Below, piece by piece: positions 7,252 through 21,794 of a stretch of 64,000 nt of DNA (its first letter is position 1; the number at the start of each line of letters is the position of its first letter). Location: the sequence record MT446416.1; one strand, given 5' to 3'. The translations under genes and the position numbers were made by a program. A model generated the notes under the pieces. It had not been told where the DNA came from. It saw nothing but the letters and a program-made list of their open reading frames with translations, and did not search any database. This DNA is from Escherichia virus TH47.

Positions 7252-7280
7252 AAGGAGCCAATGGCTCCTTTTTTCTTTTT
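7252..7280. terminator. bidirectional rho-independent terminator
   Basis: stem GGAGCCA/TGGCTCC flanked by A-run and T-run, between convergent genes. Confidence 0.65.
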
Positions 7281-8379
7281 ATACCCCAATTAGTGGGATA
7301 CCTGTTATATTAAGTAGAACAGATACTTGAAGCTTAACTGACTCACCTGCCGAAAGGTTGTTTACTATACCATCTACGCGGAACCCTAAGTTTTTATTAG
7401 AGTTAAGAGAGTTAATCACCCAGTTTTCGTAATCCGCTTTTGTAATACCATTCGGATTTGGGAGAGTTGGGTCAACACCATTAATTACCATAGATACATC
7501 CCAATTAGGGCGACTACTTGTAATTACATCCTTGATTGATTCTAGTTGTGTAATGCGACGTGGGTCTGGAATCTGACTTGCACCAATTGAACCAGGAACA
7601 AATTTACCTTGGTTATCAACATAGAACTGACCTTTAATGAAAAATGTTTTTGAATTATACGGAAGAGAAACAATTTCACCTGATGAATCACTAACTTCAC
7701 GAATCATAATTTTCAATTCATAAAAATAGTTACTACCAAATTCAAACACACCAGTACCATTTGTGAATGTTGTCCAGTTATTTGAATCAACCTGTGAAGT
7801 ACCACCCATATTGAAGTAAGCTAATGGCTTAGTACTGTTACTTTGTGTAAATTCAATATATTTCTTACCTGTATCATAGTTGATATCAAGTAGTGTGGAG
7901 TACTCTTTATTTTCTGGACGAGATGTTTGAATTTCACGCCATTCTTTATTTTTCATTAGGACACGAAGGGAATCACCATTACTGGTAAGAACCATACGAC
8001 CCATAATACTATTTTCACCATCTGGTACGGTGTTGAAAATTGAAATCATTGGGATAGATGCCCAGTCAGCTTCAGATGCAGTATCTACTGGCTGACGAGC
8101 ATTATCAACTAATGCAAGAAGTAGTTCGCCAGTGTTGCCAGTATTTCTGTACCAAATCTGACCATTAACGTTACCACGAGGTGCAGTTGCTCCACTGAAG
8201 TTCTCAACCAAGTGGAGGAAGTTTTCGTTCCATGCTTGACCGTAACCAACTTTATTTCGACCTGCAAAGTTTAACGGTACTGGGTTACTACCAGGTTGGT
8301 TTGGTCCTAATATTACGTTATTTGGAATGGTAGCATAAACGCTACCATTACTTCTATAAATTGTATAACTTACACTCAT
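7279..8379 (-). CDS. putative tail fibre / baseplate-associated protein
   Basis: 366-aa ORF, RBS AAGGTGA; Gly/Asn/Thr-rich beta-type composition typical of fibre proteins; no enzymatic motif. Confidence 0.5.
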   Translation of the reverse strand: MSVSYTIYRSNGSVYATIPNNVILGPNQPGSNPVPLNFAGRNKVGYGQAWNENFLHLVENFSGATAPRGNVNGQIWYRNTGNTGELLLALVDNARQPVDTASEADWASIPMISIFNTVPDGENSIMGRMVLTSNGDSLRVLMKNKEWREIQTSRPENKEYSTLLDINYDTGKKYIEFTQSNSTKPLAYFNMGGTSQVDSNNWTTFTNGTGVFEFGSNYFYELKIMIREVSDSSGEIVSLPYNSKTFFIKGQFYVDNQGKFVPGSIGASQIPDPRRITQLESIKDVITSSRPNWDVSMVINGVDPTLPNPNGITKADYENWVINSLNSNKNLGFRVDGIVNNLSAGESVKLQVSVLLNITGIPLIGV

Positions 8380-8391
8380 ATCATCACCTTA

Positions 8392-9000
8392 TTATTGTAG
8401 TTGGACACGAACTGTGTATTTGATTTGCAAAACACGGTTAGCACTTTTCTCAACTGGGTGAAAAATAATATGGGTAAGTGGAATACCGCTATCACCATTT
8501 GTATATAAACCCAATTCGTCAAATACATATGTCCCATCCATGCTAGTACCAGAGCTAACACCTTGGTCAGATGGCTCACCTAAACCTAATGTACAAATAC
8601 AGACGATATCAGTGTAAGCTTGGCCTGGAATGTGAACAGTTGTAATGTTGTTATATTGTGAATCAATACCAGCAGAGATACGTGGGTTGATTTTTTTCAG
8701 ATAAGTCTGAGAATATAGACCACCGAAAGAAGTAACGCGTGGTTTCTTGTATGTGATACGACCAGTACTCAAAACTACTGTTCCACCATTACCAAAACGC
8801 ATCTCACTAATAGATCCAATAGGAATACCAGTACTATCTTGATTATAAGCCAACGCATTAGCAATAGCAGTACTCATATTTTCAGGGTGAATTGCGTTTG
8901 ATTTATCCAAAACGATTTTTTGGTTAGATGGATCAGTAACGTCAGTAATTAGTACATGACCCTTAACAAATAGTTTTGGTTGTTCTGTTTCTAATTTCAT
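8392..9000 (-). CDS. hypothetical virion protein (fibre-attachment-like)
   Basis: 202-aa ORF with AAGGA RBS; C-terminal ELGLYTNGDSG motif resembles phage tail-collar/fibre N-domains. Confidence 0.45.
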   Translation of the reverse strand: MKLETEQPKLFVKGHVLITDVTDPSNQKIVLDKSNAIHPENMSTAIANALAYNQDSTGIPIGSISEMRFGNGGTVVLSTGRITYKKPRVTSFGGLYSQTYLKKINPRISAGIDSQYNNITTVHIPGQAYTDIVCICTLGLGEPSDQGVSSGTSMDGTYVFDELGLYTNGDSGIPLTHIIFHPVEKSANRVLQIKYTVRVQLQ

Positions 9001-9009
9001 TTCTAATCC

Positions 9010-9507
9010 TTAGTAGTTAATTAAAATTTGTTCTAACTTACCAGCTAAACTTTTTTGTACATCAGATGGATACTTGCTAATGTAATCACGGTCAATACCA
9101 ACTTTCAGATAGGTAAAGTTTCCGGTTAAGGTTTCAGCGAATGTACCAGTTGTACCTTGTTCTCTAATAAGGTCACCACCATTTGGGTTAAGAATGACAT
9201 TATCAGTAAATTCAAGATAGAAGTTGCAGCTTTCGGTAAATTTAATTGGGAACCAATCATCGTCCGATGGATTACTTGCCAGTGTAGCGAGTACGTAAAT
9301 TCTACCAATGAAGTTACGTAGGGTAAAGGATATTGTATGTAATCCTGTAGTACTACCATAATAGCCGCCACTAGCTAATGATAATGTTTGTTCGTTCCAA
9401 TGATAATCTAAGTTAGCAGGATACCAGCTATCTGATTCAGGAAATTCTTGCCATGAACCATCTTTAGTTTTTCTTTTGAAGAGGAAGTCTTTTGATCTTA
9501 ATGCCAT
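9010..9507 (-). CDS. hypothetical virion protein
   Basis: 165-aa ORF, RBS AAGGG; first gene of a 3-gene minus-strand operon divergent from the fibre genes. Confidence 0.5.
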   Translation of the reverse strand: MALRSKDFLFKRKTKDGSWQEFPESDSWYPANLDYHWNEQTLSLASGGYYGSTTGLHTISFTLRNFIGRIYVLATLASNPSDDDWFPIKFTESCNFYLEFTDNVILNPNGGDLIREQGTTGTFAETLTGNFTYLKVGIDRDYISKYPSDVQKSLAGKLEQILINY

Positions 9508-9616
9508 TGTTAAGCCCTTTTAGTAGTGAACTTTCATTTATTTATTAATGGCAACGAAATGTATTTTGTACTGATAAATATTGGTATATGACATTAACTC
9601 ATACAAGGGAAATATT

Positions 9617-10744
9617 ATGACAATTTCATTCAACAATGGGTCAGGTGGTTCATGTAATAATTCTGGCATCAAAAGTTTAGTTATTAACGCTGCTGGACAT
9701 TTAATTGTAACCTATTCCGACAATACAATCCAAGACCTAGGTCTAGTGGTTGGACAAAATGGTGCTAACGGTAGAAACTTTTATCCAAATGAGATAGGTT
9801 TTGAAGTTCCTAATGAACTCTTCCGTGTTGGTGAAGAACTAGGGTGGTGTTATCTTAGTCTTGCAAATGGCACTAGTACTTTATATTTTAAATCAAACGA
9901 TGCACAAGAAGAAATTAGTACTTGGAACCGTGTAGAGTTTGGTAAAGGTGATACTGGCGAAACTGGTAAACCATTCCACATTGACAGTTCTGGTACGGTG
10001 TTTCCAACAACTGGTCTTTTCAATAATTACACATTCTATAATACTGAAGATGGTAAATTATATTTCTATCAAAGCGTAACTGCAACATGGAGTGATGGTA
10101 TTCCTTTCCGTGGTGAACAAGGTCTACGTGGTCGTTTCCATATTGATAGTACTGGTAGTCAATTCCCAAGTATTGATAATCTACCACAAGATTATTGCTT
10201 CTATAACACTACTGATGGTAATTTGTATTATGTTGATATCGTAACTACATCATCAACCCCAACTAAAGAGTGGAGTGCTGGAATCTTATTCCGTGGTAAA
10301 GACGGTGAAGAAGGTAAGCAAGGTGAGCAAGGTGTTCAGGGTGAACCTGGTAAAGACACAGTTGTTATCATCAACACTATTGATCATTCATGGACTAACG
10401 CATTGTTAGTTATTGGTACATGCCCTGCTGGATACCTAGTAACTAATATCGAAGTTGACATTAATCAAGCATATGATGAACCAGTAAATGAAATGTTTGT
10501 ACGTTTCGGTGGTGAAGCACAAGAAGATATTGGTGGTACTGTAATTGCACCTGTTGATTATTTCGATATCAACCGCAAAATGCGTTACATTGTTAACGAA
10601 ACCAACCACGAAGTATCAAGTAAAGATGAAATCATTTCTTGTGTATTCAATGATTCCGTAAACAACAGTTCATTTGGTGAAATGAAGATCGTTTGTACTT
10701 TATCATGGCAAGCACCTATTCAGCCTATTCAAGATAACATTTAA
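9617..10744 (+). CDS. tail fibre protein with collagen-like G-X-Y repeats
   Basis: start at ATG 9617 with AAGGGAAA RBS (track starts at TTG 9581); three Gly-X-Y runs (e.g. GKDGEEGKQGEQGVQGEPGKD), each followed by an FHIDSxG-type repeat. Confidence 0.65.
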   Translation: MTISFNNGSGGSCNNSGIKSLVINAAGHLIVTYSDNTIQDLGLVVGQNGANGRNFYPNEIGFEVPNELFRVGEELGWCYLSLANGTSTLYFKSNDAQEEISTWNRVEFGKGDTGETGKPFHIDSSGTVFPTTGLFNNYTFYNTEDGKLYFYQSVTATWSDGIPFRGEQGLRGRFHIDSTGSQFPSIDNLPQDYCFYNTTDGNLYYVDIVTTSSTPTKEWSAGILFRGKDGEEGKQGEQGVQGEPGKDTVVIINTIDHSWTNALLVIGTCPAGYLVTNIEVDINQAYDEPVNEMFVRFGGEAQEDIGGTVIAPVDYFDINRKMRYIVNETNHEVSSKDEIISCVFNDSVNNSSFGEMKIVCTLSWQAPIQPIQDNI

Positions 10745-10758
10745 AAGAGGGTTGATAC

Positions 10759-10825
10759 ATGGCAGTTTTTTCCAATTTAGAAGGGACCATGATGCCAACA
10801 TTCAAGTTGGGTAAACGTGGTGCTT
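10759..10825 (+). repeat. shared N-terminal module, copy 1 (MAVFSNLEGTM...)
   Basis: about 65 nt near-identical to 12915-12981 at the 5' ends of two adjacent fibre genes. Confidence 0.7.
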
Positions 10826-12900
10826 CTATTAATTTTGTAAACGATTCTGTCGCAATCAAAGACTTTTTAGGTGAAACGTTCCTACCTGTTAAGGTGGGAA
10901 CTCCTAATGACGATGATTCCGCAGTAAACGTTATGTATCTTGAAGATAACCCAAATGCTTTATTTGGCGTACTTCCACCAACAAATGACATTGGTAAAAA
11001 TAACAACACTTATTTTCAAGTTGATTCTGAGGGTATTGTTGATATCTTTGCAAAAACAAATGATGTTTGGGTAAAATCATTATACATTAATAAAAATGTC
11101 CTTTCCAGTGTTAACGGTGCTGATTATATCGGACTTATTACTGGAGGAACACTCCAACAGGCACAGTTTTACATAACTCCAGAAGAGTTTGGTGCAAAAG
11201 GTGATGGCATCACTGATGACACGGCAGCGGTTAACGCATGTGCAGTTTATGCAAAAGAACACCAAATCCAAATTCAAGCTGGTGGTAATTATCGTATCAG
11301 AACTGCTGTTTATTTGAATGATATTCAATGGTTTGGTGGAACAATCACTGGCAACGGTGGCACAATGGTATCAGTACTGAATAGTACAATCCAACAAGCA
11401 ACATTAACAGGATGTTATTTAAAATTCTTTGGTGGTGATGGTAAATTTTATTTTAATAAATTTATTAATATTACAAGTACTGCTACATTTCTAATGCAAG
11501 GTATGACTGAATCAGGTACTATCGACTTTTGCTTTAATGAAATGACACAATGTAAGTACGGTGTTCTTCAGCAAGGCACTGGTGAGAAAATGACAGTTGG
11601 GCGTTATTCATACAACCACATCCATGATATATATGGTGATGCAATTGAATTGAACGTAGTCAACTCACATTACCCAGACGGTTTTGTAATAGAAGGTAAC
11701 TTGATTGAAAACGTAGATGGTACAGATGCACCAATTCCTCTTTCAAACTGGGGTATTGGTATCGGCGTTGCTGGTTCTGGTCCTTATGATGTGAATGCTG
11801 ATGATTCACAATATGTAAAAAAATTCGTTATAAAAAATAACCGCTTGTACAATGTCCGTCAATGTATTCACGTTGAGTTGGGTAAAGACTTTAAAATTCT
11901 CAATAATGAAGTTTATCCATCAACGTTGGTATCAATTGGTACTGGTTTGACAACCGCTGGTGTAATTACTTATGGTTCTGTTGATTTTATTATTGATGGC
12001 CTATCTGGGCATCTATTAAATGATCCATCAGTAACTAACCGTATGGTTTCTATTAACTGGGGTGTAACATCTGGTAAATTTGCTGGTCCTCCACGTAACT
12101 TTAAATTATGTAATCTCCACATTCCTGAGTCGTCTATTATTGTGTATACTTCAGGCTCTGATAATTGGCTAAATACTACTGAACTTTCTAATATTACATG
12201 TAGTAGAATTCAATGGCGTGGATTGCCGTCATCTTCCAAGTTTAATAATATCAGTACTAAAGAACTTGATGTTATTGGACAACACCTTGCAACTGAAGGT
12301 GAAGGAGGGGGCTTATATACTCGCTCTAAATATACATATACCAACTGGACTAATTGTGTTGTTCAAGATGATTGTAACATATCAAAATATAGTTTCTCAA
12401 GAATGTATGTTGACCGTATTGACCAATCATCTAATAACTTTAAAGTAACCACTGCAATTGATGGAACTGGACATCGTGGACCTGTAGTAATACCTGTAGT
12501 TGAACAGTATTACGTGCCTTATGATGTTTTTCCTGGTGGGAGATATTTCCCAGAAGGAACAATTATCCATAAACAATCAGGTGGAAAATTTATTGTTACA
12601 GTAGGTGGTTCTTTCTTTGGTCGATATGACACAATTAGACAAACAGTTGCAGGACAAACTTATATCGAAGCATTGGGTGTATCATGGGGTGATAATCAAT
12701 ATGCTAAAGCTGCTGGAACCGAAATCCTAATCACAGGAGCAGGGGAAAACGGCGAAGATTTAAAAACATATATCACTAGAGCAGTTTATGTTGTTAATAA
12801 TGCGTATCGTATCGATATTGCCGATCCGATTGTTACTGCTACCGCAGCAGGGGCATTATTGAAAGCTGCTCAACCAATAACATATATCACCCTATCTTAA
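10759..12900 (+). CDS. tail spike/fibre with pectate-lyase-like beta-helix domain (candidate depolymerase)
   Basis: motif EEFGAKGDGITDDTAAVNA typical of pectate-lyase-superfamily tailspikes; N-terminal MAVFSNLEGTM module shared with the next gene. Confidence 0.65.
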   Translation: MAVFSNLEGTMMPTFKLGKRGASINFVNDSVAIKDFLGETFLPVKVGTPNDDDSAVNVMYLEDNPNALFGVLPPTNDIGKNNNTYFQVDSEGIVDIFAKTNDVWVKSLYINKNVLSSVNGADYIGLITGGTLQQAQFYITPEEFGAKGDGITDDTAAVNACAVYAKEHQIQIQAGGNYRIRTAVYLNDIQWFGGTITGNGGTMVSVLNSTIQQATLTGCYLKFFGGDGKFYFNKFINITSTATFLMQGMTESGTIDFCFNEMTQCKYGVLQQGTGEKMTVGRYSYNHIHDIYGDAIELNVVNSHYPDGFVIEGNLIENVDGTDAPIPLSNWGIGIGVAGSGPYDVNADDSQYVKKFVIKNNRLYNVRQCIHVELGKDFKILNNEVYPSTLVSIGTGLTTAGVITYGSVDFIIDGLSGHLLNDPSVTNRMVSINWGVTSGKFAGPPRNFKLCNLHIPESSIIVYTSGSDNWLNTTELSNITCSRIQWRGLPSSSKFNNISTKELDVIGQHLATEGEGGGLYTRSKYTYTNWTNCVVQDDCNISKYSFSRMYVDRIDQSSNNFKVTTAIDGTGHRGPVVIPVVEQYYVPYDVFPGGRYFPEGTIIHKQSGGKFIVTVGGSFFGRYDTIRQTVAGQTYIEALGVSWGDNQYAKAAGTEILITGAGENGEDLKTYITRAVYVVNNAYRIDIADPIVTATAAGALLKAAQPITYITLS

Positions 12901-12914
12901 AGGAGATTATAAAA

Positions 12915-12981
12915 ATGGCAGTTTTTTCTAATTTAGAAGGAACCATGAAGAAGACCTTCATACTTGGTAAAAATGGTGCAC
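12915..12981 (+). repeat. shared N-terminal module, copy 2
   Basis: near-identical to 10759-10825. Confidence 0.7.
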
Positions 12982-13814
12982 AAATTGCCACTAATGGTAA
13001 TGTTGTTCAAATCCAGAACTACACGGGTACACAACTTCTTCCTGTTTCAGCAGGTGACCCAACCGCAAATACACACTTGGTTACATTGGGTTATTTGAAT
13101 ACACATAGCGGTGGTGGTGGCGGTTCCGGTATTTTACGTGGAACTATTGCACCATCTGAATCAATTGGTGTAGATGGTGACGCTTACTTCTTAGTTGACA
13201 GTACTAATATTATTCAGATCTATATTAAAGACCTTGGTGTTTGGAAACCTCTCCAAAGCACAACTCCAGGTACTGATAGTTCTTACGTTACTACTGAAAT
13301 CGTTCCTGTATCGGCATTTACATTAGTTCCTGGAACAACAGATCAATATACTTATTCTTTACCTGAATCAGTACATGGTCGTGGTCCAGATATTATGGTT
13401 CAGCTACAGGGTGACCCTGGTAACATCCCACTTGACACTGTATTCCAAACTAACGTCACTGTGAGTGGTATTGGTGACATTACGATTGATGTTATTGGTC
13501 AAATCACTGATTATACAAGTGTCAAAGTCAACATCATAGGAGCAACAACAATGACAGTACCTTATAGTAAATTAATTAACCAAGCGGATTGGGTAGTATC
13601 TAGTGATGAATACACCATTACTATCCCAGCGTCTGAACATAACCAAACACCTGATAATTTGTATATTTCAATTTATTCAAATAAAACTCCAGGTAGCACA
13701 GCAGCATCACCATTTGAACTGGTAATAACCGAAACTCAAATTGATGCAAGTGGTAATGTTACATTCACTTCTGACGAAGCGTTTAGTGGTAAAATAGTAA
13801 TTTCTGGTAAATAA
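12915..13814 (+). CDS. tail fibre protein (paralogous N-terminus, distinct C-terminal domain)
   Basis: N-terminus MAVFSNLEGTMKKTF matches 10759 gene; AGGAGA RBS; poly-Gly linker GGGGGSG. Confidence 0.6.
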   Translation: MAVFSNLEGTMKKTFILGKNGAQIATNGNVVQIQNYTGTQLLPVSAGDPTANTHLVTLGYLNTHSGGGGGSGILRGTIAPSESIGVDGDAYFLVDSTNIIQIYIKDLGVWKPLQSTTPGTDSSYVTTEIVPVSAFTLVPGTTDQYTYSLPESVHGRGPDIMVQLQGDPGNIPLDTVFQTNVTVSGIGDITIDVIGQITDYTSVKVNIIGATTMTVPYSKLINQADWVVSSDEYTITIPASEHNQTPDNLYISIYSNKTPGSTAASPFELVITETQIDASGNVTFTSDEAFSGKIVISGK

Positions 13815-13822
13815 AAAAAATA

Positions 13823-13857
13823 GTCCAGACTACGATTCATCGAGTCTGGATTTTTTA
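13823..13857 (+). terminator. rho-independent terminator
   Basis: stem TCCAGACT/AGTCTGGA followed by TTTTTT. Confidence 0.6.
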
Positions 13858-13932
13858 TATCAATAACTAAATATATGTATATTAACAAGGTCAAATGTAT
13901 TTTATGCTTTTTGCCTATTTGGAGGGAACTAA

Positions 13933-16900
13933 ATGTACTCGATTAAAACAGATCTCGATATAACTGGTGGTGCAACGGTTGGTAAAGATCTTCTTGTGAA
14001 AGGCGATGCAGTATTCAATAAAAATCTAACAGTTAATGGAACCGTAACTTTTGCTGACGCTGTATTCACTGCGATTGAAGCAGGAACTGTAGACATTTCA
14101 TCTACACTAGATGTTGCTGGTAAAGCATCATTGAATGGTGGGATTGAAGTTCATGGTAATTCCGTAATTGGTAATTTACCAGTTGGCTCTGATACTGCAA
14201 CGATTAATTCTAATGCACAATTCCAAAGCCCAGTATCAATGGCAGGTAACCTAACACAAACGGCTGGCACTGCTGTACTAAAAGATACCCAAGTGGCATC
14301 AATGGATGTTCTTGGAACTTCTTCATTTAAAGGTAATATTACTGCTGAAACTGGCACTACCGCAGCATTTGACAAAATAACTGCAACTGATGCAACATTC
14401 ACAAACACTGCAACTACTGATATCACATCAACTGGAACTGCAAACTTTAAAGATGTGAATATTTCCGGTACACTAGGTGGAACATTTAGTCTATCTGATG
14501 TTAATGCAACAACTCTAACTGTTTCTGGTTTAACCAGTCTACAAGGTGGTGTTACATTAGGTTCCAACATTACTGGTGTGAATAGTAGTGCAAACTTCCG
14601 TGATATTAAAATTGGTTCCAATGCTGCAAACACTAACTACCGTTTGAGCTTTAACTATTCTGCTCCAAGTCTTCGTCCAACTGTAATTCTACAGAACGAA
14701 ATCCAATCAGAATTGATGTCTCCAGCTACCCTAAGTGTATTGAAAACTGCATCTTTTGGTGATTCGTCATTATCCACTTTTGGTATTACTGGTAATGGTC
14801 TAAACAAACTAGATTACCTAACAGTATCTGGTAACTCTGTTCAAGATCCAACAACTCCACTATTACAAGTAACTTCAGGTAAAACTAAAGTTCATGATTT
14901 CGAAGTAACAGGAACTGCAACTATTCCTAACATTGAAAGTACTGGAACTGCTAATTTTAATAACATCAACGTATCTGGTACACTCGGCGGTACTTTCAGT
15001 CTTGATGATATTGAAGCAAACACTCTAACTGTTTCTGGATTAACTAGCCTTGTTGGTGGTGTAACTTTGGGTGCTGATATTTCCGGTGCTAATAGTACTG
15101 CTAATTTTAAAGCAGTAAGTTTAGGACAAAACGCAGCCGATGCTAACGTTAAGTATGGTTTTGCTTATTCTGCCCCTGGTGCACGTCCAACTGTAATTCT
15201 ACAAAATGAAATTCAGTCTGAACTAGTATCTCCAGCAGTACTAAATGTACAAAAAACTGCTACCTTCGGTGATGCATCTCTTGCAACCTATGGTATCACA
15301 GGTAACGGTCTAAACAAACTAGATTATCTATCTATTACTGGTAATGGTACACAAAGTCCAGCAACGCCACAACTACAAGTAGCTGGTAAATCAGTACTAA
15401 ATGATGTTGAATTCACTGGTACTGTAACTGGCCTAACAGTTGATGTAAGTGGTCAAGACCTAACTCCTAAATCTGTTGTTGCTGCTGAAGCAATCAAAGG
15501 ACAAACCCTTGAATCTGTTGGTCAAACCACCGTAGGAACTAACCTACAAGTTGGTGGAACAGCTAATGTTGTTGGTGCACTAACTGGTACTGCTGCAACC
15601 TTTACTGGTGACGTAAGTGCTGCTAAAGGTACTTTCAGTGGTGATGTTAGCGTTACTGGGCAAACTGTAACTGTACGTGATTTAGTAGTAACTGGCACAA
15701 CTACTGGTGTAACTGCCCAAGCTGACGTTGATGGTCTTGATATCGCCCCAAATAAAGTTGATGTTACAACAACACTATCTGTTGCTGGGGACACTACTTT
15801 AGCTGGTCTAACTGCTAGTTCAGTAACAAGTACTGGTGATGTTACTGGTGCGTCTGTATCTGGTAATACAGTAACTGCGGCTGGTGCACTATCTGGTGGT
15901 TCTCTTGCAGTAACTGGTGCTGGTTCTATGGCTTCACTAACTGTTCCAAGTATTACTGGGGACACTACTTTTGCTAATAACGTAACTATTACTGGAACAC
16001 TAACTCCGAGTAGTATAGATTTAAGCACTACTGATGTAAGTGCTGCTTCTTTAACAACTACTGGTAACGTAACTGTTGGTGGTTCTCTTGCAGTAACTGG
16101 TGCTATTGATTTGTCTGCTGCTGATGTAGTAACAAAATCAGTTAGTGCAACTAACCCAAGTACATTTGGTGTAATTAATGCATCTTCTGTTGCCGCAACT
16201 GGTGACGTTTCAGGTGGCACTCTAACTACTACTGGTGCAGCGAAAGTAGGAACACTAACTAGTACTGGTGTAGTATCTGGTTCGCGTTTGTCTTCTGGTA
16301 CTGCAACAATCTCAACTTCTGTAACAGTTCCAACTTTACAAGCTGAAGCTGCTGGTGCTGGTACACTAAATCTAGCAAGTAATGTTGTCGCGGCAAAAGA
16401 TCTAACTGTCACTGGTGTATTCAAACCTGAAGGTGGTCTTGACCTAACAACTGTTGATATTACTGCAAACTCACTAACTACTACTGCTGATGTTAATGTT
16501 GGTGGAAACTTAGTAGTTGATGGTACTTTTGACCTAAGTGCTGCTGATGTATCAGTTAAATCTCTTGTAAGTGCAGAGGCAATTACTAGTGGTGGTGTGA
16601 TTACCGTTACCGATTCAACCAATACTAGTTCGTTCCCTAAAATTACTTCAACTGATGCAACACTCTTTACAGTAAATGCAGGTACTATTAATGCAACTGG
16701 CAACAGTGTACTACAAAGTGTATCAGCTACTCAAGTAACTGCTACTAGTGCTGAATTTTCTGGTAGTGGCCTTGGTCTTCAAGTTGATAATGATGCAAAC
16801 GTTGGTGGTGCATTATCTGTTGGTGGCATTGCAACTGTTGGTTCTTTAACAACAACTGCTGCTTCTCTTAATATTGCAAAAAATACTGCAATCAATGGTG

Positions 16901-18891
16901 ATTTAGCTGTATCTGGTACACTAACTGCTGGTTCAATCGACCTAAGCAATACTGATGTAACCGTTAAATCTCTTGATTCACTAGGTAACGCACACATTGC
17001 TGGTAACCTAACTGTTGATGGTGCATTCGACTTAAGTGCAACTAACCTTGTAGCTGCAAGTCTAGCAAGTACTGGTTCTACTACTGTTGGAACTGATCTA
17101 GTACTAACAACTGGTGTTGTGACTGGTAGCCCAGCTATCTCTGGTAATACAACAATCGGTGGAACTCTTGGTGTAACTGGTGCTGTTAACCTAACTGATA
17201 TTGTTAATATCGGTAAGAAAGTAACAGTGAGTACTGGTGGTATTCAGGTAGTTGATGGTGGTATCAATACTAACACAATTAACGTTTCTGGTGCTACTAC
17301 TCTAGCAGGAACTTCCATTACTGGAACTTTAGGTGTAACTGGTGCTTCTACTCTAGCAGGTGTATCTGCAACATCACTAACAGTTTCTGGTGACAGTACT
17401 GTTCAGAAACTAACTGTCCAAGGTGAATTGATCCCACAAGGTGGTCTTGACCTAAGCGGTGCAGACATTACTGCTAATAGTCTAACTACTGCAACAACTA
17501 TCAATGCAACTGGCCTAAGTACTCTAAGTGGTGGTGTTAGTACTTCTACTGTGACTGCATCTGGTCTAGCAACTGTTGGAAGTTTAACTTCTACTGCAAA
17601 CGCATCAGTTGGTGGTAATTTGGGTGTAACTGGAACTCTAGGTGTTACTGGTGCAACTACTGTATCTTCACTAACAGCTACTGGTGCAGTGAAAACTGGT
17701 ACAACCCTAACTGTTGGTACTCCAGTTGGTGAACAACCTGAAACTGTACAGATCATTCCAGATACTTATATTGCTGGTAAATTGCGTGTAATCGGCGGTA
17801 TTAACGCTGATATTGATGTTAGTGGTCAAACACTAGAACCATATGCAATTGAAGCTGCTGCAACACTATCTGCTGTTGGTAACATTACTTCTGGTGCAAC
17901 CATCGTTTCTAAAGCTGCAACAATTGGTGATGTTGGTTCACAAAACAACAACCTAACTGTTAATGGTAACGTAGTAACTAATGGTGACTTCACAGTTACT
18001 GGGGTACTAAATGCACAATTGAACCAAGCAGATTCCGATGTAGCTGTTAAATCTTTAACTGCAACTAATAACGTTGCGGCTGGTACTTCAATCACTGCTG
18101 GTACTTCCATCACTGCAACTGGATTACTTAAAGGTAATACTTTAGAAGTTACTACTACTGGTTCATTTGGTGGTGCAGTAACTATGTCAAGTGGTGCAAA
18201 CATCACTGGTACAGTGGGTATTACTGCTGGTGACCTAACAGTAGGTGGTAATATCTCTGCAACTGGCACTGCTGGATTCGGTGCAACAACCGTTTCTACA
18301 ATTACAACATCAGGTTTGGCTACACTTGCAAGTACATCCGTTACTGGTAACGCAACAGTAGGTGGAACACTAGCAGTAACAGGAGCACTAACTGCGAATG
18401 GTAACGTAACATTAGGTGACGCAGCGGCTGACGTTCTAACCGTTAATGCAACTTCATCATTTAAAGAAAATGCTGTGTTTGATAAGGCAGTAACAGTAAC
18501 TGGTGAACTAACCACTACTAATGCTAACTTAACTACTACAACAGTAACTACCAAAAAGTATGATGTAATCCCAACTCAAGTTACATCATCAGTAATTGCT
18601 CCAACCGGAACATGGACTCCAGATGGTACAAGTAACGTGTACTTCATCACTCTAGACCAAGATACCACGTTGGCTCCAATTACTGGCCTAATTGGTGGCG
18701 GTAAAGCTGCATCAGTATACATCTATGTTAAACAAGATACAACTGGTAACAGAAACTTTACAACTGATGGTACTTATGCTGTTGTTGATGGTGAACTAAA
18801 CAAAACTGCTGGTAGCGTGACCATTTACCAAGTAATTTATGATGGTGTAAGTCCAGTTACTGATTTGTTCATTGCACAACGTACTGCTTAA
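13933..18891 (+). CDS. giant fibrous protein (1652 aa), probable long tail fibre
   Basis: GGAGGG RBS; Thr/Gly/Ser/Val/Ala-rich repetitive sequence with recurring LTVSG, VTGT and GNxT motifs; internal tandem duplication. Confidence 0.7.
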   Translation: MYSIKTDLDITGGATVGKDLLVKGDAVFNKNLTVNGTVTFADAVFTAIEAGTVDISSTLDVAGKASLNGGIEVHGNSVIGNLPVGSDTATINSNAQFQSPVSMAGNLTQTAGTAVLKDTQVASMDVLGTSSFKGNITAETGTTAAFDKITATDATFTNTATTDITSTGTANFKDVNISGTLGGTFSLSDVNATTLTVSGLTSLQGGVTLGSNITGVNSSANFRDIKIGSNAANTNYRLSFNYSAPSLRPTVILQNEIQSELMSPATLSVLKTASFGDSSLSTFGITGNGLNKLDYLTVSGNSVQDPTTPLLQVTSGKTKVHDFEVTGTATIPNIESTGTANFNNINVSGTLGGTFSLDDIEANTLTVSGLTSLVGGVTLGADISGANSTANFKAVSLGQNAADANVKYGFAYSAPGARPTVILQNEIQSELVSPAVLNVQKTATFGDASLATYGITGNGLNKLDYLSITGNGTQSPATPQLQVAGKSVLNDVEFTGTVTGLTVDVSGQDLTPKSVVAAEAIKGQTLESVGQTTVGTNLQVGGTANVVGALTGTAATFTGDVSAAKGTFSGDVSVTGQTVTVRDLVVTGTTTGVTAQADVDGLDIAPNKVDVTTTLSVAGDTTLAGLTASSVTSTGDVTGASVSGNTVTAAGALSGGSLAVTGAGSMASLTVPSITGDTTFANNVTITGTLTPSSIDLSTTDVSAASLTTTGNVTVGGSLAVTGAIDLSAADVVTKSVSATNPSTFGVINASSVAATGDVSGGTLTTTGAAKVGTLTSTGVVSGSRLSSGTATISTSVTVPTLQAEAAGAGTLNLASNVVAAKDLTVTGVFKPEGGLDLTTVDITANSLTTTADVNVGGNLVVDGTFDLSAADVSVKSLVSAEAITSGGVITVTDSTNTSSFPKITSTDATLFTVNAGTINATGNSVLQSVSATQVTATSAEFSGSGLGLQVDNDANVGGALSVGGIATVGSLTTTAASLNIAKNTAINGDLAVSGTLTAGSIDLSNTDVTVKSLDSLGNAHIAGNLTVDGAFDLSATNLVAASLASTGSTTVGTDLVLTTGVVTGSPAISGNTTIGGTLGVTGAVNLTDIVNIGKKVTVSTGGIQVVDGGINTNTINVSGATTLAGTSITGTLGVTGASTLAGVSATSLTVSGDSTVQKLTVQGELIPQGGLDLSGADITANSLTTATTINATGLSTLSGGVSTSTVTASGLATVGSLTSTANASVGGNLGVTGTLGVTGATTVSSLTATGAVKTGTTLTVGTPVGEQPETVQIIPDTYIAGKLRVIGGINADIDVSGQTLEPYAIEAAATLSAVGNITSGATIVSKAATIGDVGSQNNNLTVNGNVVTNGDFTVTGVLNAQLNQADSDVAVKSLTATNNVAAGTSITAGTSITATGLLKGNTLEVTTTGSFGGAVTMSSGANITGTVGITAGDLTVGGNISATGTAGFGATTVSTITTSGLATLASTSVTGNATVGGTLAVTGALTANGNVTLGDAAADVLTVNATSSFKENAVFDKAVTVTGELTTTNANLTTTTVTTKKYDVIPTQVTSSVIAPTGTWTPDGTSNVYFITLDQDTTLAPITGLIGGGKAASVYIYVKQDTTGNRNFTTDGTYAVVDGELNKTAGSVTIYQVIYDGVSPVTDLFIAQRTA
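14422..15453 (+). repeat. tandem duplication of a ~516-nt (~172-aa) unit inside the giant fibre gene
   Basis: two consecutive diverged copies (STGTANF..NxSGTLGGTFSL..TLTVSGLTSL..RPTVILQNEIQSEL..GITGNGLNKLDYL..). Confidence 0.6.
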
Positions 18892-18910
18892 TAATTATAA
18901 TAAAAAAAAC

Positions 18911-18934
18911 GGTGTCATCAATTATGGTGACACC
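18911..18934. terminator. hairpin between fibre genes (A-run upstream, no T-run downstream on + strand)
   Basis: stem GGTGTCA/TGACACC; orientation best suits a minus-strand terminator or an RNA-processing structure. Confidence 0.3.
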
Positions 18935-18957
18935 ATCTTAACAAGTGAGGTAGTTAT

Positions 18958-19737
18958 ATGTTTACATATGTAAAAGGTAGTTCTAAAGAAAATTATGAAT
19001 TGGGTAACATCATCTCCAACCCAGTTGGTGTTAAGGGTTTAAAAGAACGCCCTGGGGCAACTCCAGATGATGAACAAACATATCGTTATTTGTACAGTGA
19101 TATTCGTGCACTTTATGGTATTTCAAGTAAAGATGGTTCTGAAATTGAACCTAATAACGCTGTTCGCAAAGAAGAGGGTTTCTGGTGGTTGGAATATAAG
19201 AATGTTGGTAATGTGAACGCAATTAATGAGAATTTGGAATATATTAAACTACAAGATAGTAATCAACCAGTCATCACATTCTTAGAAGAAGCAGAAGGTG
19301 AATATAAAGAGTTAACAGTACTGAAAACTTATAATTATGTTGATATGGACATTGCAGCAGTTAAATCTGATCTGAAAGCACGCACAGTATCATCTCGTAG
19401 TGATCGTATTAATGCTGGTTATATGTTTAACGGTCATCGTTATAGTACTGATCTAGCTGGTCGTCAAATGCTTCTTAATTATTATACACAAGTAACTTCC
19501 GGTTCTGATAGCGTTTCGATTTTCCTTGATGACGCAATTGTAAAACTATCTGCTGCTGAAATGACTCAACTATACACTGAAGCATTTGCTATGGTTGAAT
19601 CCCTATTTGCAGAGTGTAATAAGCAATGTGCTGACATTGATGCAGTTCCTGATGCTGATGAAGATGCAATTTATAAAGCACAACAGGCGGCTGTATGGGT
19701 ATATGAAGGTATTGATATTCCTGAGCGTACTCGTTAA
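18958..19737 (+). CDS. hypothetical protein, possible tail-fibre assembly/chaperone
   Basis: 259-aa ORF with GTGAGG RBS immediately after the giant fibre gene; assignment by position only. Confidence 0.45.
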   Translation: MFTYVKGSSKENYELGNIISNPVGVKGLKERPGATPDDEQTYRYLYSDIRALYGISSKDGSEIEPNNAVRKEEGFWWLEYKNVGNVNAINENLEYIKLQDSNQPVITFLEEAEGEYKELTVLKTYNYVDMDIAAVKSDLKARTVSSRSDRINAGYMFNGHRYSTDLAGRQMLLNYYTQVTSGSDSVSIFLDDAIVKLSAAEMTQLYTEAFAMVESLFAECNKQCADIDAVPDADEDAIYKAQQAAVWVYEGIDIPERTR

Positions 19738-19751
19738 TTTATATTTTTTTT

Positions 19752-19784
19752 AAAGGTCAACTATGGTTGGCCTTTTCTTTTATC
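19752..19784 (+). terminator. rho-independent terminator
   Basis: stem AAGGTCAAC/GTTGGCCTT (one mismatch) followed by T-rich run. Confidence 0.5.
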
Positions 19785-19829
19785 TAAAATAAATACTTAA
19801 TATATAATCTATTCTGAGGAAATATTTAA

Positions 19830-21794
19830 ATGAGTATAAATCGAATTAGAGGTGATGGTGGTGTAATTATAGATAGTCAGGCATTTCTAGAATTACCTAA
19901 AGCACCGACTAAAGAAACCGCTGATGTGGTTAGATCAGGGATGATTAGATACAATAAAGGATGGAAAGCATTTGAAGGTGTACTAGACTTTGAAGATGGT
20001 TCAATGGCATATCGACGTTTTGCAAACCTAGATGCGAACGGTAAACTTCTTACTTCCCAATTACCAGATTCAGTAACTAGTGGTTTACAATTTGTTGGTA
20101 CATATAATCCCATCCCAGATGATATCGATCCACCTTTAGCACAAACTCCACTACCAGCACCATCACCATCGCTTAATGGTGATTATTATGTCGTTCGTGG
20201 TATAATGGATGCCGCACAAGCACATTATGAAGCAAATAATCCACAAACAAGTCCTGTTACATTTACACCTACAAATCCAACTGGACAAGGTAATTGGATT
20301 GAAATTTTATATTATGTTGACTCTAATCCAAATATATCTGGTGCTAAACTAGTAACATACGCTTTTGCTAGAATTATTACTGCATCTATTCCCAGTACTG
20401 GACATGATGGCCTTGAAAATTTAGCAACAGATACTGACTTGACCAAACCATTTGCATCTGGTGTTCCAATGAACCAAACTGCACTTTCAGATGGCGATTG
20501 GATTATTATAACTGAAGATAAGAATATACGTCTTCGTCAGTCAAGAACAAGCATTTCCGCTGCTTCAGTATTATATGACAATACTGTAATGATTGCAAAT
20601 CATCGTCAATTTAGAACAAACGCAGGGACCGTTCAAACATCCATAGATAACGTTGTGATTGAGTGTTTACGTAGAACTGGCGATTCCATGTATAATGATG
20701 GAACAGACGGCTCTGGGCGTTTTGGGGTGGTGTATGGCAGTGCAGCAGCACCAGCATTGACATTTAATAATAATCCGTTTGACCCAACGAATAACCCAGG
20801 TAATGACCCAACTAAGTGGTCCGATGCTAATACTGGTATATTTCATCCATCCGATGACGCAATTGGGTTCAGCACTGCTGGCACAGAACGTGTTCGAATT
20901 AATAATGGAACACTAACATTATTCCAAACTACCGCTACACCAGCAGCTACGCCAGTAATACGTTTTGATAATGCATCAAACACAAACGTAGGGATAAGTG
21001 CAAGTAGTAATATTATTTCTTTAAGTTCAATGAATAAAGTTCAAGTTGAATTTAAAAATGGTGAATCACATTTTCATGGAAATATTATTGTAGATGGTTC
21101 AACATCACTAACTGGTGATTTAGACGCAGGTAACATCAATGCCAGCGGGAATTTAGTTGTTAAAGGTAATACAACACTAGGTGACACTACTGGTGACACT
21201 ATTACAGTTAATGGTGTTAGTACTTATAATGCAAATACTAATTTCAATGGAACTAATAACAAATTCAAAAACATAAACTTACTAGAGAATGGTGTATTCA
21301 CATTAGAAAGTACTACAAACCAAAGTGATATAAAACTACTTGGTGCAGACTTACGTTTCACTATGGGAAGTTATGCTGATGTAAGTATATATGATAACGG
21401 TGTTATTCGTACTCGTTTCAACCGATATGGTATTCAATTACCAGTACTGGCTACAATTGATAACTCGGTTGGTGTTGATGGTATGATTGCATACTCAAAT
21501 ACCGAACGTACATCGATGCAGAAGGTTCAAGGACAATGGGTTCCAATTGGTTCTGGTTCTGTTCGTACTGACCCGTTTGTTGCGTCAGCGTGGGTTTTAA
21601 ACGGCTCATATTACACATTAACAGTAACTGCTAGTAACATAGTAACTGCTGAAATTCAAGAACTCGTAAGTACTGGTGTTTACACTCGTGTTGAAGTTGA
21701 TAGTGTTACATTCAATGGAACAAGCGTAGTGTTCAGTATCCCTGCAACTCCTGATGTGAGATTTGCCGGACGTACACTGGTTACATTAAGATAA
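19830..21794 (+). CDS. tail fibre protein
   Basis: 654-aa ORF, GAGGAAA RBS; Asn/Thr/Gly-rich with fibre-type repeats; ends at bidirectional terminator. Confidence 0.55.
   Translation: MSINRIRGDGGVIIDSQAFLELPKAPTKETADVVRSGMIRYNKGWKAFEGVLDFEDGSMAYRRFANLDANGKLLTSQLPDSVTSGLQFVGTYNPIPDDIDPPLAQTPLPAPSPSLNGDYYVVRGIMDAAQAHYEANNPQTSPVTFTPTNPTGQGNWIEILYYVDSNPNISGAKLVTYAFARIITASIPSTGHDGLENLATDTDLTKPFASGVPMNQTALSDGDWIIITEDKNIRLRQSRTSISAASVLYDNTVMIANHRQFRTNAGTVQTSIDNVVIECLRRTGDSMYNDGTDGSGRFGVVYGSAAAPALTFNNNPFDPTNNPGNDPTKWSDANTGIFHPSDDAIGFSTAGTERVRINNGTLTLFQTTATPAATPVIRFDNASNTNVGISASSNIISLSSMNKVQVEFKNGESHFHGNIIVDGSTSLTGDLDAGNINASGNLVVKGNTTLGDTTGDTITVNGVSTYNANTNFNGTNNKFKNINLLENGVFTLESTTNQSDIKLLGADLRFTMGSYADVSIYDNGVIRTRFNRYGIQLPVLATIDNSVGVDGMIAYSNTERTSMQKVQGQWVPIGSGSVRTDPFVASAWVLNGSYYTLTVTASNIVTAEIQELVSTGVYTRVEVDSVTFNGTSVVFSIPATPDVRFAGRTLVTLR

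Follow-up and report, generated by a model that had tools for sequence, protein, structure and literature searches.

The genome of Escherichia virus TH47 raises the question of why two adjacent genes, whose products are unrelated over most of their length, begin in nearly the same way. Both genes lie within the 64,000-nucleotide (nt) stretch of sequence record MT446416.1 that we analysed (the window; coordinates given without a locus name are window positions), in tandem on the + strand and separated by 14 nt. Gene 1 (10759..12900, 713 residues) encodes a predicted chimeric colanidase tailspike, in which an N-terminal module is joined to a β-helix body of the phi92 gp150 type; gene 2 (12915..13814, 299 residues) encodes a clade-wide virion structural protein, in which the same module precedes two immunoglobulin (Ig)-like β-sandwich domains. 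A first-pass annotation had pointed to a common start followed by a lysine/glycine stretch, and this was found in both open reading frames (ORFs): the undecapeptide MAVFSNLEGTM opens both proteins and is followed by FKLGKRGA in gene 1 and FILGKNGA in gene 2. We propose that the shared part is a module of about 105 residues which probably attaches both proteins to the virus particle, gene 1 having been assembled from a duplicate of the gene 2 handle and an acquired colanidase body.

The 34-nt pattern ATGGCAGTTTTTTCYAATTTAGAAGGRACCATGA had two sites in the window, both at the start codons of genes 1 and 2, compared with an expected count of 0 from 100 dinucleotide-preserving shuffles of the window. 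The 33-nt start boxes that encode the undecapeptide (10759..10791 and 12915..12947, both on the + strand) were identical at 31/33 positions (94%), and the longest exact run between them was 14 nt. Over nt 1-65 of the genes identity was 52/65 (80%), roughly the 85% over about 65 nt reported earlier; it was 64% over nt 34-66 and about 35-50%, near background, beyond that point. The proteins had been said to diverge completely after this start, but their homology ran to residue ~105: BLASTP aligned residues 1-104 of gene 1 with residues 1-110 of gene 2 at 41% identity (E = 2e-19), far beyond the few residues that might agree by chance. Module copy 1 occupies 10759..11073 (+ strand; gene 1 residues 1-105, as delimited by BLASTP against gene 2; E = 2.9e-34 with a profile hidden Markov model, HMM). 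Module copy 2 occupies 12915..13250 (+ strand; gene 2 residues 1-112) and consists of subdomain A (residues 1-64), a Gly-rich hinge (65-70), and subdomain B (72-112). Near-identity is confined to the first 11 residues of a shared module of ~105-112 residues, and beyond residue ~105-112 the two proteins are unrelated. No third module copy was detected in the window with tblastn and the profile HMM, and no further copy was detected with the profile HMM in 295 kb of the 98.8%-identical phage fEgEco12. Since the intergenic gaps are only 14 nt long, the genes are probably co-transcribed; a search for promoters and terminators between them gave nothing above shuffle expectation.

The remainder of gene 1 is the colanidase body (11074..12900, + strand), comprising a neck, a right-handed β-helix and a C-terminal domain. 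The family phrog_6117 ('colanic acid degradation') covered residues 94-711 only (E = 1.6e-251), and the structure of phi92 gp150 (PDB 6E0V) matched residues 96-712 (E = 3.8e-233), which were 56% identical over 617 residues to gp150 residues 189-801 without large gaps. The phi92/rV5-type particle-binding N-terminus (gp150 residues 1-188) had no counterpart in gene 1, whose residues 1-95 aligned with gene 2 instead. As the β-helix body is the same as that of gp150, gene 1 presumably also degrades colanic acid. By tblastn the body was present in 291 phage records. Among phi92-like, rV5-like and PVP-SE1-like myoviruses and podoviruses it follows other, unrelated N-terminal regions; the carriers outside the RaK2-like clade lacked the N-terminal module described here. 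Every cultured phage having gene 1 bore the same colanidase body. The base composition of gene 1 gave no sign of horizontal transfer, and its GC content was not anomalous.

Several relatives carry altered copies of this gene. The A7 run at 11816-11822 in gene 1 is A8 in phage vB_Ec-M-J (a single-base insertion; locus L001, 7260-9402), and for this reason the colanidase gene of that phage is annotated as two coding sequences. Interrupted copies also occur in CMSTMSU (three pieces) and JNE01 (a 141-residue product, P0006); such copies reflect either homopolymer sequencing errors or the frequent inactivation of a dispensable spike. A 201-residue protein from an E. coli third-party annotation (TPA) assembly (P0002) is an in-frame deletion variant of a 121Q-type gene 1, in which the module and neck (about residues 1-150) are fused straight to the last ~50 residues and the whole β-helix is gone.

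Gene 2 matched phrog_10468 ('virion structural protein') over its full length (E = 1.9e-92), and syntenic orthologs were found in 121Q (gp572), GAP32 (GAP32_221), CBB (CBB_227) and EJP2 (EJP2_223). In RaK2-like phages members of this family have 281-294 residues and a body of two Ig-like sandwich domains; accordingly, an AlphaFold2 model of gene 2 placed two confidently predicted Ig-like β-sandwiches after the N-terminal module (mean predicted local distance difference test score, pLDDT, 77). Virion mass spectrometry detected the CBB ortholog, CBB_227, with 5 peptides and 32% coverage (PMC5259590). The corresponding list for phAPEC6 virions omits gp254 and gp255, the inferred orthologs of gene 1 and gene 2, respectively (for gp255, from gene order). 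The best-conserved part of the gene 2 family was residues 1-11, with a mean pairwise identity of 68% compared with 29-46% elsewhere, and this peptide was equally conserved in phages with a single copy of the module.

The region containing both genes is 98-99% identical to coliphages WPEC5, fEgEco12, BF17, vB_Ec-M-J and Ecwhy_1 and ~80% identical to 121Q, PBECO4 and phAPEC6. These relatives are RaK2-like jumbo myoviruses with genomes of 350-385 kb, several of whose records are classified as Asteriusvirus. When whole phage genomes were searched with tblastn, the module was confined to RaK2-like phages and occurred at two places per Asteriusvirus-type genome and at one place in the Klebsiella, Cronobacter, Erwinia, Yersinia, Pectobacterium, Serratia, Xanthomonas and Salmonella relatives. 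The gene order common to RaK2-like phages runs from a ClpA-like gene through a structural protein, a T4 gp15-like tail-completion protein, MutT and three reverse-strand structural genes to a 'tail protein' of 371-375 residues, after which the phages outside Asteriusvirus have the gene-2-type protein directly; in GAP32, CBB and EJP2 this protein has 286-293 residues and precedes a giant fibre. A colanidase gene between the tail protein and gene 2 was found in Asteriusvirus-type coliphages only. In RaK2 (gp061; locus L002, 8001-8348) and K64-1 the module stands alone as a protein of 115 residues, and an uncultured lineage (P0014; locus L039, 6001-6342) has a stand-alone module of 113 residues that falls in a different 50%-identity cluster from that of RaK2. 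The stand-alone form is an intact ORF in both lineages. There the Ig-like body, the giant fibre and a 259-residue gene are all missing, and the module is followed by an ortholog of a 654-residue protein of the window and then by thymidylate synthase. A scan of IMG/VR yielded 19 module loci, most of them on contigs of ~345-378 kb and the rest on shorter contigs or fragments.

An AlphaFold2 model of the module, built on an alignment of 29 sequences, had a mean pLDDT of 83.7 and predicted three short strands and a helix (residues 12-64), a low-confidence Gly hinge (65-70) and a β-hairpin sheet (72-112). Scores were ~51 for residues 1-10 and below 50 for residues 67-69; such low confidence at residues 1-11 of a monomer would fit a segment that takes on order only when bound to a partner. 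Fold similarity of the model to CBA120 tailspike (TSP) D1, to T4 gp10 domains and to the N-terminal domains of P22 and T7 was not significant, and no significant similarity to any solved structure was found. We then took the profile HMM of the module to 1.84 billion representative proteins, using an exhaustive HMM search in place of a word-indexed search that had given 8 short or truncated proteins. The full module was found at residue 1 of gene-2-type proteins of ~190-300 residues, of a 723-residue colanidase and of the stand-alone proteins of 113-115 residues. Subdomain A alone (profile positions 1 to ~70) was likewise always at residue 1, and its carriers were a 780-residue spike that combines a pectate-lyase-like helix with a Peptidase_S74 chaperone, a 705-residue Beta_helix spike, six BNR-propeller fibres of 1,204-1,366 residues and several short proteins; the β-helix spikes that carry it as their first ~65 residues span 684-780 residues. 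Subdomain B alone (positions 65-112, a 'G..P....G..GD.Y' hairpin) recurred in up to 14 repeats in many large fibre proteins and is thus a generic fibre unit. The suggestion that related phages would have the module on different C-terminal domains was borne out by the several different bodies found behind it. The RaK2-like clade thus reuses one N-terminal handle for varied payloads, which are fused to it at either of two places, behind subdomain A or behind subdomain B. The analysis also covered the surroundings of the most distant subdomain A carriers (P0082, P0117 and P0097), which added nothing to this picture.

The 780- and 705-residue spikes are encoded on the same 120-kb contig of an uncultured RaK2-like phage (locus L008). 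Positions 10001-20688 of that locus form a second receptor-binding locus beside nrdD/nrdG, in which the two subdomain A spikes flank two phrog_3573 paralogs of ~900 residues and a fragment-like gene of 199 residues. A 902-residue protein of this phage has homologs with 65-67% identity in Erwinia, Serratia, CBB and GAP32 phages. At the nrdD/nrdG locus of fEgEco12, phrog_3573 genes (g242-g244) are present and there are no spikes.

The relationship between the two module copies dates the duplication. The gene 1 modules of the window and 121Q were about 77-78% identical to each other and only 38-42% identical to gene-2-type modules, and the gene 2 modules grouped with those of RaK2 and GAP32. Gene 1 modules thus cluster by orthology; the partial duplication from which they derive is old and occurred once, in the ancestor of Asteriusvirus, and the repeat is neither recent nor undergoing homogenisation. 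The module of gene 1 was 77% identical to that of 121Q and 56% identical to that of A4, where the corresponding values for gene 2 were 86% and 77%; to judge from these values the gene 1 copy evolves faster than the gene 2 copy.

The history most consistent with these results begins with gene 2 as the ancestral carrier, since every RaK2-like jumbo phage has a member of its structural family at this locus. A duplication in the Asteriusvirus lineage would then have copied the first ~315 nt of gene 2, and the duplicate would have been joined at about residue 105 to a horizontally acquired colanidase body of the phi92 gp150 type, so that the module replaced the spike's own particle-binding domain and gave rise to gene 1 directly upstream of gene 2. 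We propose that the conserved N-terminal peptide, together with the β/α subdomain (residues 1-64), would form a docking surface for a conserved virion component, and that the glycine hinge would lead to a β-hairpin unit (residues 72-112) that is probably a trimerising neck. Given the shared handle, an enzyme that degrades slime or capsule might be mounted on the same kind of site as the gene 2 protein. Support for attachment comes from the presence of CBB_227 in virions, from the fact that the module invariably comes first in the spike and fibre proteins that carry it, and from the persistence of the stand-alone module within a structural cluster. The first-pass annotation had described a common baseplate-docking adaptor with varied distal domains; the adaptor part of this description agrees with our results, and the baseplate as its docking site is not established. 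The locus is next to the T4 gp15-like tail-completion gene, with the baseplate wedge cluster ~20 kb away, and the tails of phAPEC6, imaged by cryo-electron microscopy at only ~25 Å, bear repeated appendages at the collar, at three levels of the sheath and at the baseplate (PMC7247149).

A shared N-terminus could also serve as a signal for oligomerisation, chaperone recognition or some other step of assembly, with gene 1 perhaps being a soluble or loosely associated enzyme. We think this unlikely, as the CBB ortholog of gene 2 was recovered with virions, subdomain A always begins proteins with typical spike or fibre bodies, and the stand-alone form of 113-115 residues, which has nothing to trimerise or chaperone, is nevertheless syntenic with structural genes; moreover, the phi92 gp150 homolog of the colanidase is annotated as a tailspike in its genome record. 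Processing of a prohead-protease or signal type between NLE and G of the undecapeptide was considered and rejected, because position 8 is variable (S, N, D, K and R are found in place of E8). The P3 position of this site also does not fit the prohead protease motifs of T4 and phiKZ.

The DNA that encodes the undecapeptide calls for an explanation of its own. The 33 nt of the gene-2-type box showed no synonymous difference among at least nine lineages of several genera, including the window, 121Q, GAP32, CBB, Serratia BF, Yersinia fHe-Yen9-04 and three IMG/VR contigs, even though the box uses the rare codons GGA and ACC (the product of its codon frequencies is 7e-5); in the same phages codons 12-25 vary synonymously. 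A constraint on translation initiation, an RNA element or a DNA linker could each cause this invariance. The first-pass annotation had regarded the repeat as a plausible site of recombination, and a linker kept by gene conversion, or used as a crossover point for cassette exchange or excision of the colanidase, would account for the synonymous identity across genera. Gene 1 is flanked by the boxes as direct repeats, between which a crossover would delete it precisely, and over deep evolutionary time different bodies have come to lie behind the same subdomain A. The history of the copies tells against such a role and makes it improbable. The exact run is short and identity falls just past the box, and the clustering of gene 1 modules by orthology rather than by genome shows no concerted evolution. 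In JNE01, 121Q and A4 the gene 1 copy differs from its own gene 2 copy inside the box. Five pairwise comparisons (with 121Q, A4, EJP2, GAP32 and CBB) gave no jump in identity across the box, and neither recent exchange nor mosaic breakpoints were seen there among the genomes compared. The uniform colanidase body of the cultured gene 1 carriers also gives no hint of cassette exchange, and the absence of gene 1 from EJP2 does not mark a recent deletion, since this phage is only distantly related (its upstream protein is 56% identical). Gene conversion between the copies was considered separately: gene 1 of the window has L7 and ACC, like gene 2, and gene 1 of 121Q and A4 has F7 and ACT or ACA. 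This pattern did not support conversion, as gene 1 of JNE01 also has L7, which may therefore be ancestral.

Alternatively, the box could be identical because its messenger RNA forms a hairpin that pairs the start codon and tunes the translation of both genes, the protein similarity being in part a by-product. The predicted pairing (AUGG with CCAU and UUUUUUCUA with UAGAAGGAA) is the same in gene 1, gene 2, GAP32 and RaK2, its stem fits the rare codons GGA and ACC, and two cases of compensatory change (ATA/GGT) occur at pair 9-27. In 26 sequences 86% of cells were paired, compared with 45-62% in slid controls, although the structure was derived from the same sequences used to test it. Its fold z-scores of only −0.07 to −0.83 were not significant, covariation was weak (a score of 0.085, which 11/500 shuffles reached, compared with 0.060 in shuffled alignments), and pairs 15-21 and 3-30 were broken in 10/20 and 7/20 distinct sequences, respectively. 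As such a hairpin also cannot explain protein homology out to residue ~105, we consider it very improbable and rejected it. A broader speculation, to which we give little credence, is that the box is a dedicated nucleic-acid element, acting either as a cassette-exchange linker or as a hairpin that adjusts, through translation, the relative amounts of proteins that compete for a single docking site. If it were true, the linker would allow jumbo phages to join new spike bodies to one universal handle, and the stand-alone module of 113-115 residues would be a 'blank plug' for unused sites. A particle-attachment module spread by an old duplication remains the reading that we prefer.

If the module attaches to the particle, the product of the gene directly upstream is a candidate for its partner. 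This 'tail protein' (9617..10744, + strand, 375 residues; phrog_13565, E = 2.8e-213) is syntenic in every RaK2-like phage, with the orthologs RaK2 gp062, GAP32_222, 121Q gp574 and CBB_228, and mass spectrometry identified both CBB_228 (PMC5259590) and phAPEC6 gp253, another ortholog, as virion proteins. Its ORF extends upstream to a TTG at 9581 (387 residues), and its orthologs start with MTISFNNGS, corresponding to the ATG at 9617. The protein contains two copies of a unit of ~50 residues (GKPFHIDSSGTVFP...YFY and GRFHIDSTGSQFP...YYV) and a short collagen-like G-X-Y run. Proteins of 165, 202 and 366 residues, encoded at 7279-9507, are further conserved neighbours.

Downstream of gene 2 lies a giant repetitive tail fibre (13933..18891, + strand, 1652 residues; phrog_4549), with orthologs GAP32_220, CBB_226 and 121Q gp571. 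A giant fibre is present wherever the gene 2 body is full and absent in RaK2, where the bare module remains. This co-occurrence hints, though no more than that, that gene 2 might connect the giant fibre with the particle. Within the fibre there are long repeats (TGTANFKDVNISGTLGGTFSLSDVNATTLTVSGLTSLQGGVTLG, for instance, returns after about 165 residues) and many 'T/S-G-x-V/L' repeats resembling β-strands, and it matches PHROG 4549 in six stretches. In fEgEco12 a second giant fibre, g316 (1906 residues; locus L036, 147162-152882), lies between the first giant fibre and the 259-residue gene. The corresponding position in the window is 18892-18957, next to the single giant fibre, and close relatives thus differ by a whole fibre gene.

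RaK2-like jumbo phages may therefore add a polysaccharide-degrading spike to a fixed platform by copying the handle of a resident structural protein. A portable module of ~65-105 residues could serve for grafting other depolymerases onto Asteriusvirus particles and could help to find the docking site in cryo-electron microscopy maps of 'hairy' tails. We found no description of this module in the searchable literature: the papers on the RaK2 genome and on the RaK2 adsorption complex do not mention gp061, and nothing on it appears in the passages searched from the papers on fEgEco12 and Sharanji.

Comparison with known systems places the pair among established arrangements. The closest relative of gene 1 is gp150 of phi92 (PDB 6E0V/6E0W; Justusliebigvirus), which has the same β-helix body; it differs in having its own particle-binding N-terminus of 188 residues in place of a ~105-residue module shared with a neighbouring gene, and in the virion platform, which for gene 1 is that of a RaK2-like jumbo myovirus. 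In T-even phages, conserved 'His boxes' in the distal tail-fibre genes are reportedly sites of recombination (Tetart et al. 1998). In both cases short conserved stretches of DNA, lying at domain borders of host-range genes, could serve for crossover; the 33-nt box differs in that it showed no mosaic breakpoints among the genomes compared. In the branched complexes of CBA120 TSP1-4 and of RaK2 gp526-gp534 (PMC10253068), the latter from the same clade, N-terminal domains organise several spikes, as they may do here. The module showed no sequence similarity to either system, and a Pfam search of seven neighbouring proteins revealed no T4 gp10-like branching domain or adaptor nearby. The nearest parallel in design is with the hepta- and undecapeptides that sit on the adaptor in K1-5, K1E and SP6 and with the 'conserved peptide' of KP32, KP34 and JD001 (Latka et al. 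2019, PMC6872550). In the K1-5/SP6 and KP32-type systems, as here, one genome encodes two receptor-binding or structural proteins with a common, short and highly conserved N-terminus (11 residues within a subdomain of ~65 in the present pair), their distal domains are unrelated, and truncated forms without a distal domain occur. Unlike in those systems, with which we found no sequence relationship, a second, β-hairpin subdomain is present here, and docking is putative. The module pair is thus a new example of the well-known modular design of receptor-binding proteins rather than a new kind of system; it leaves that principle unchanged and should be useful for the annotation and engineering of jumbo coliphages.

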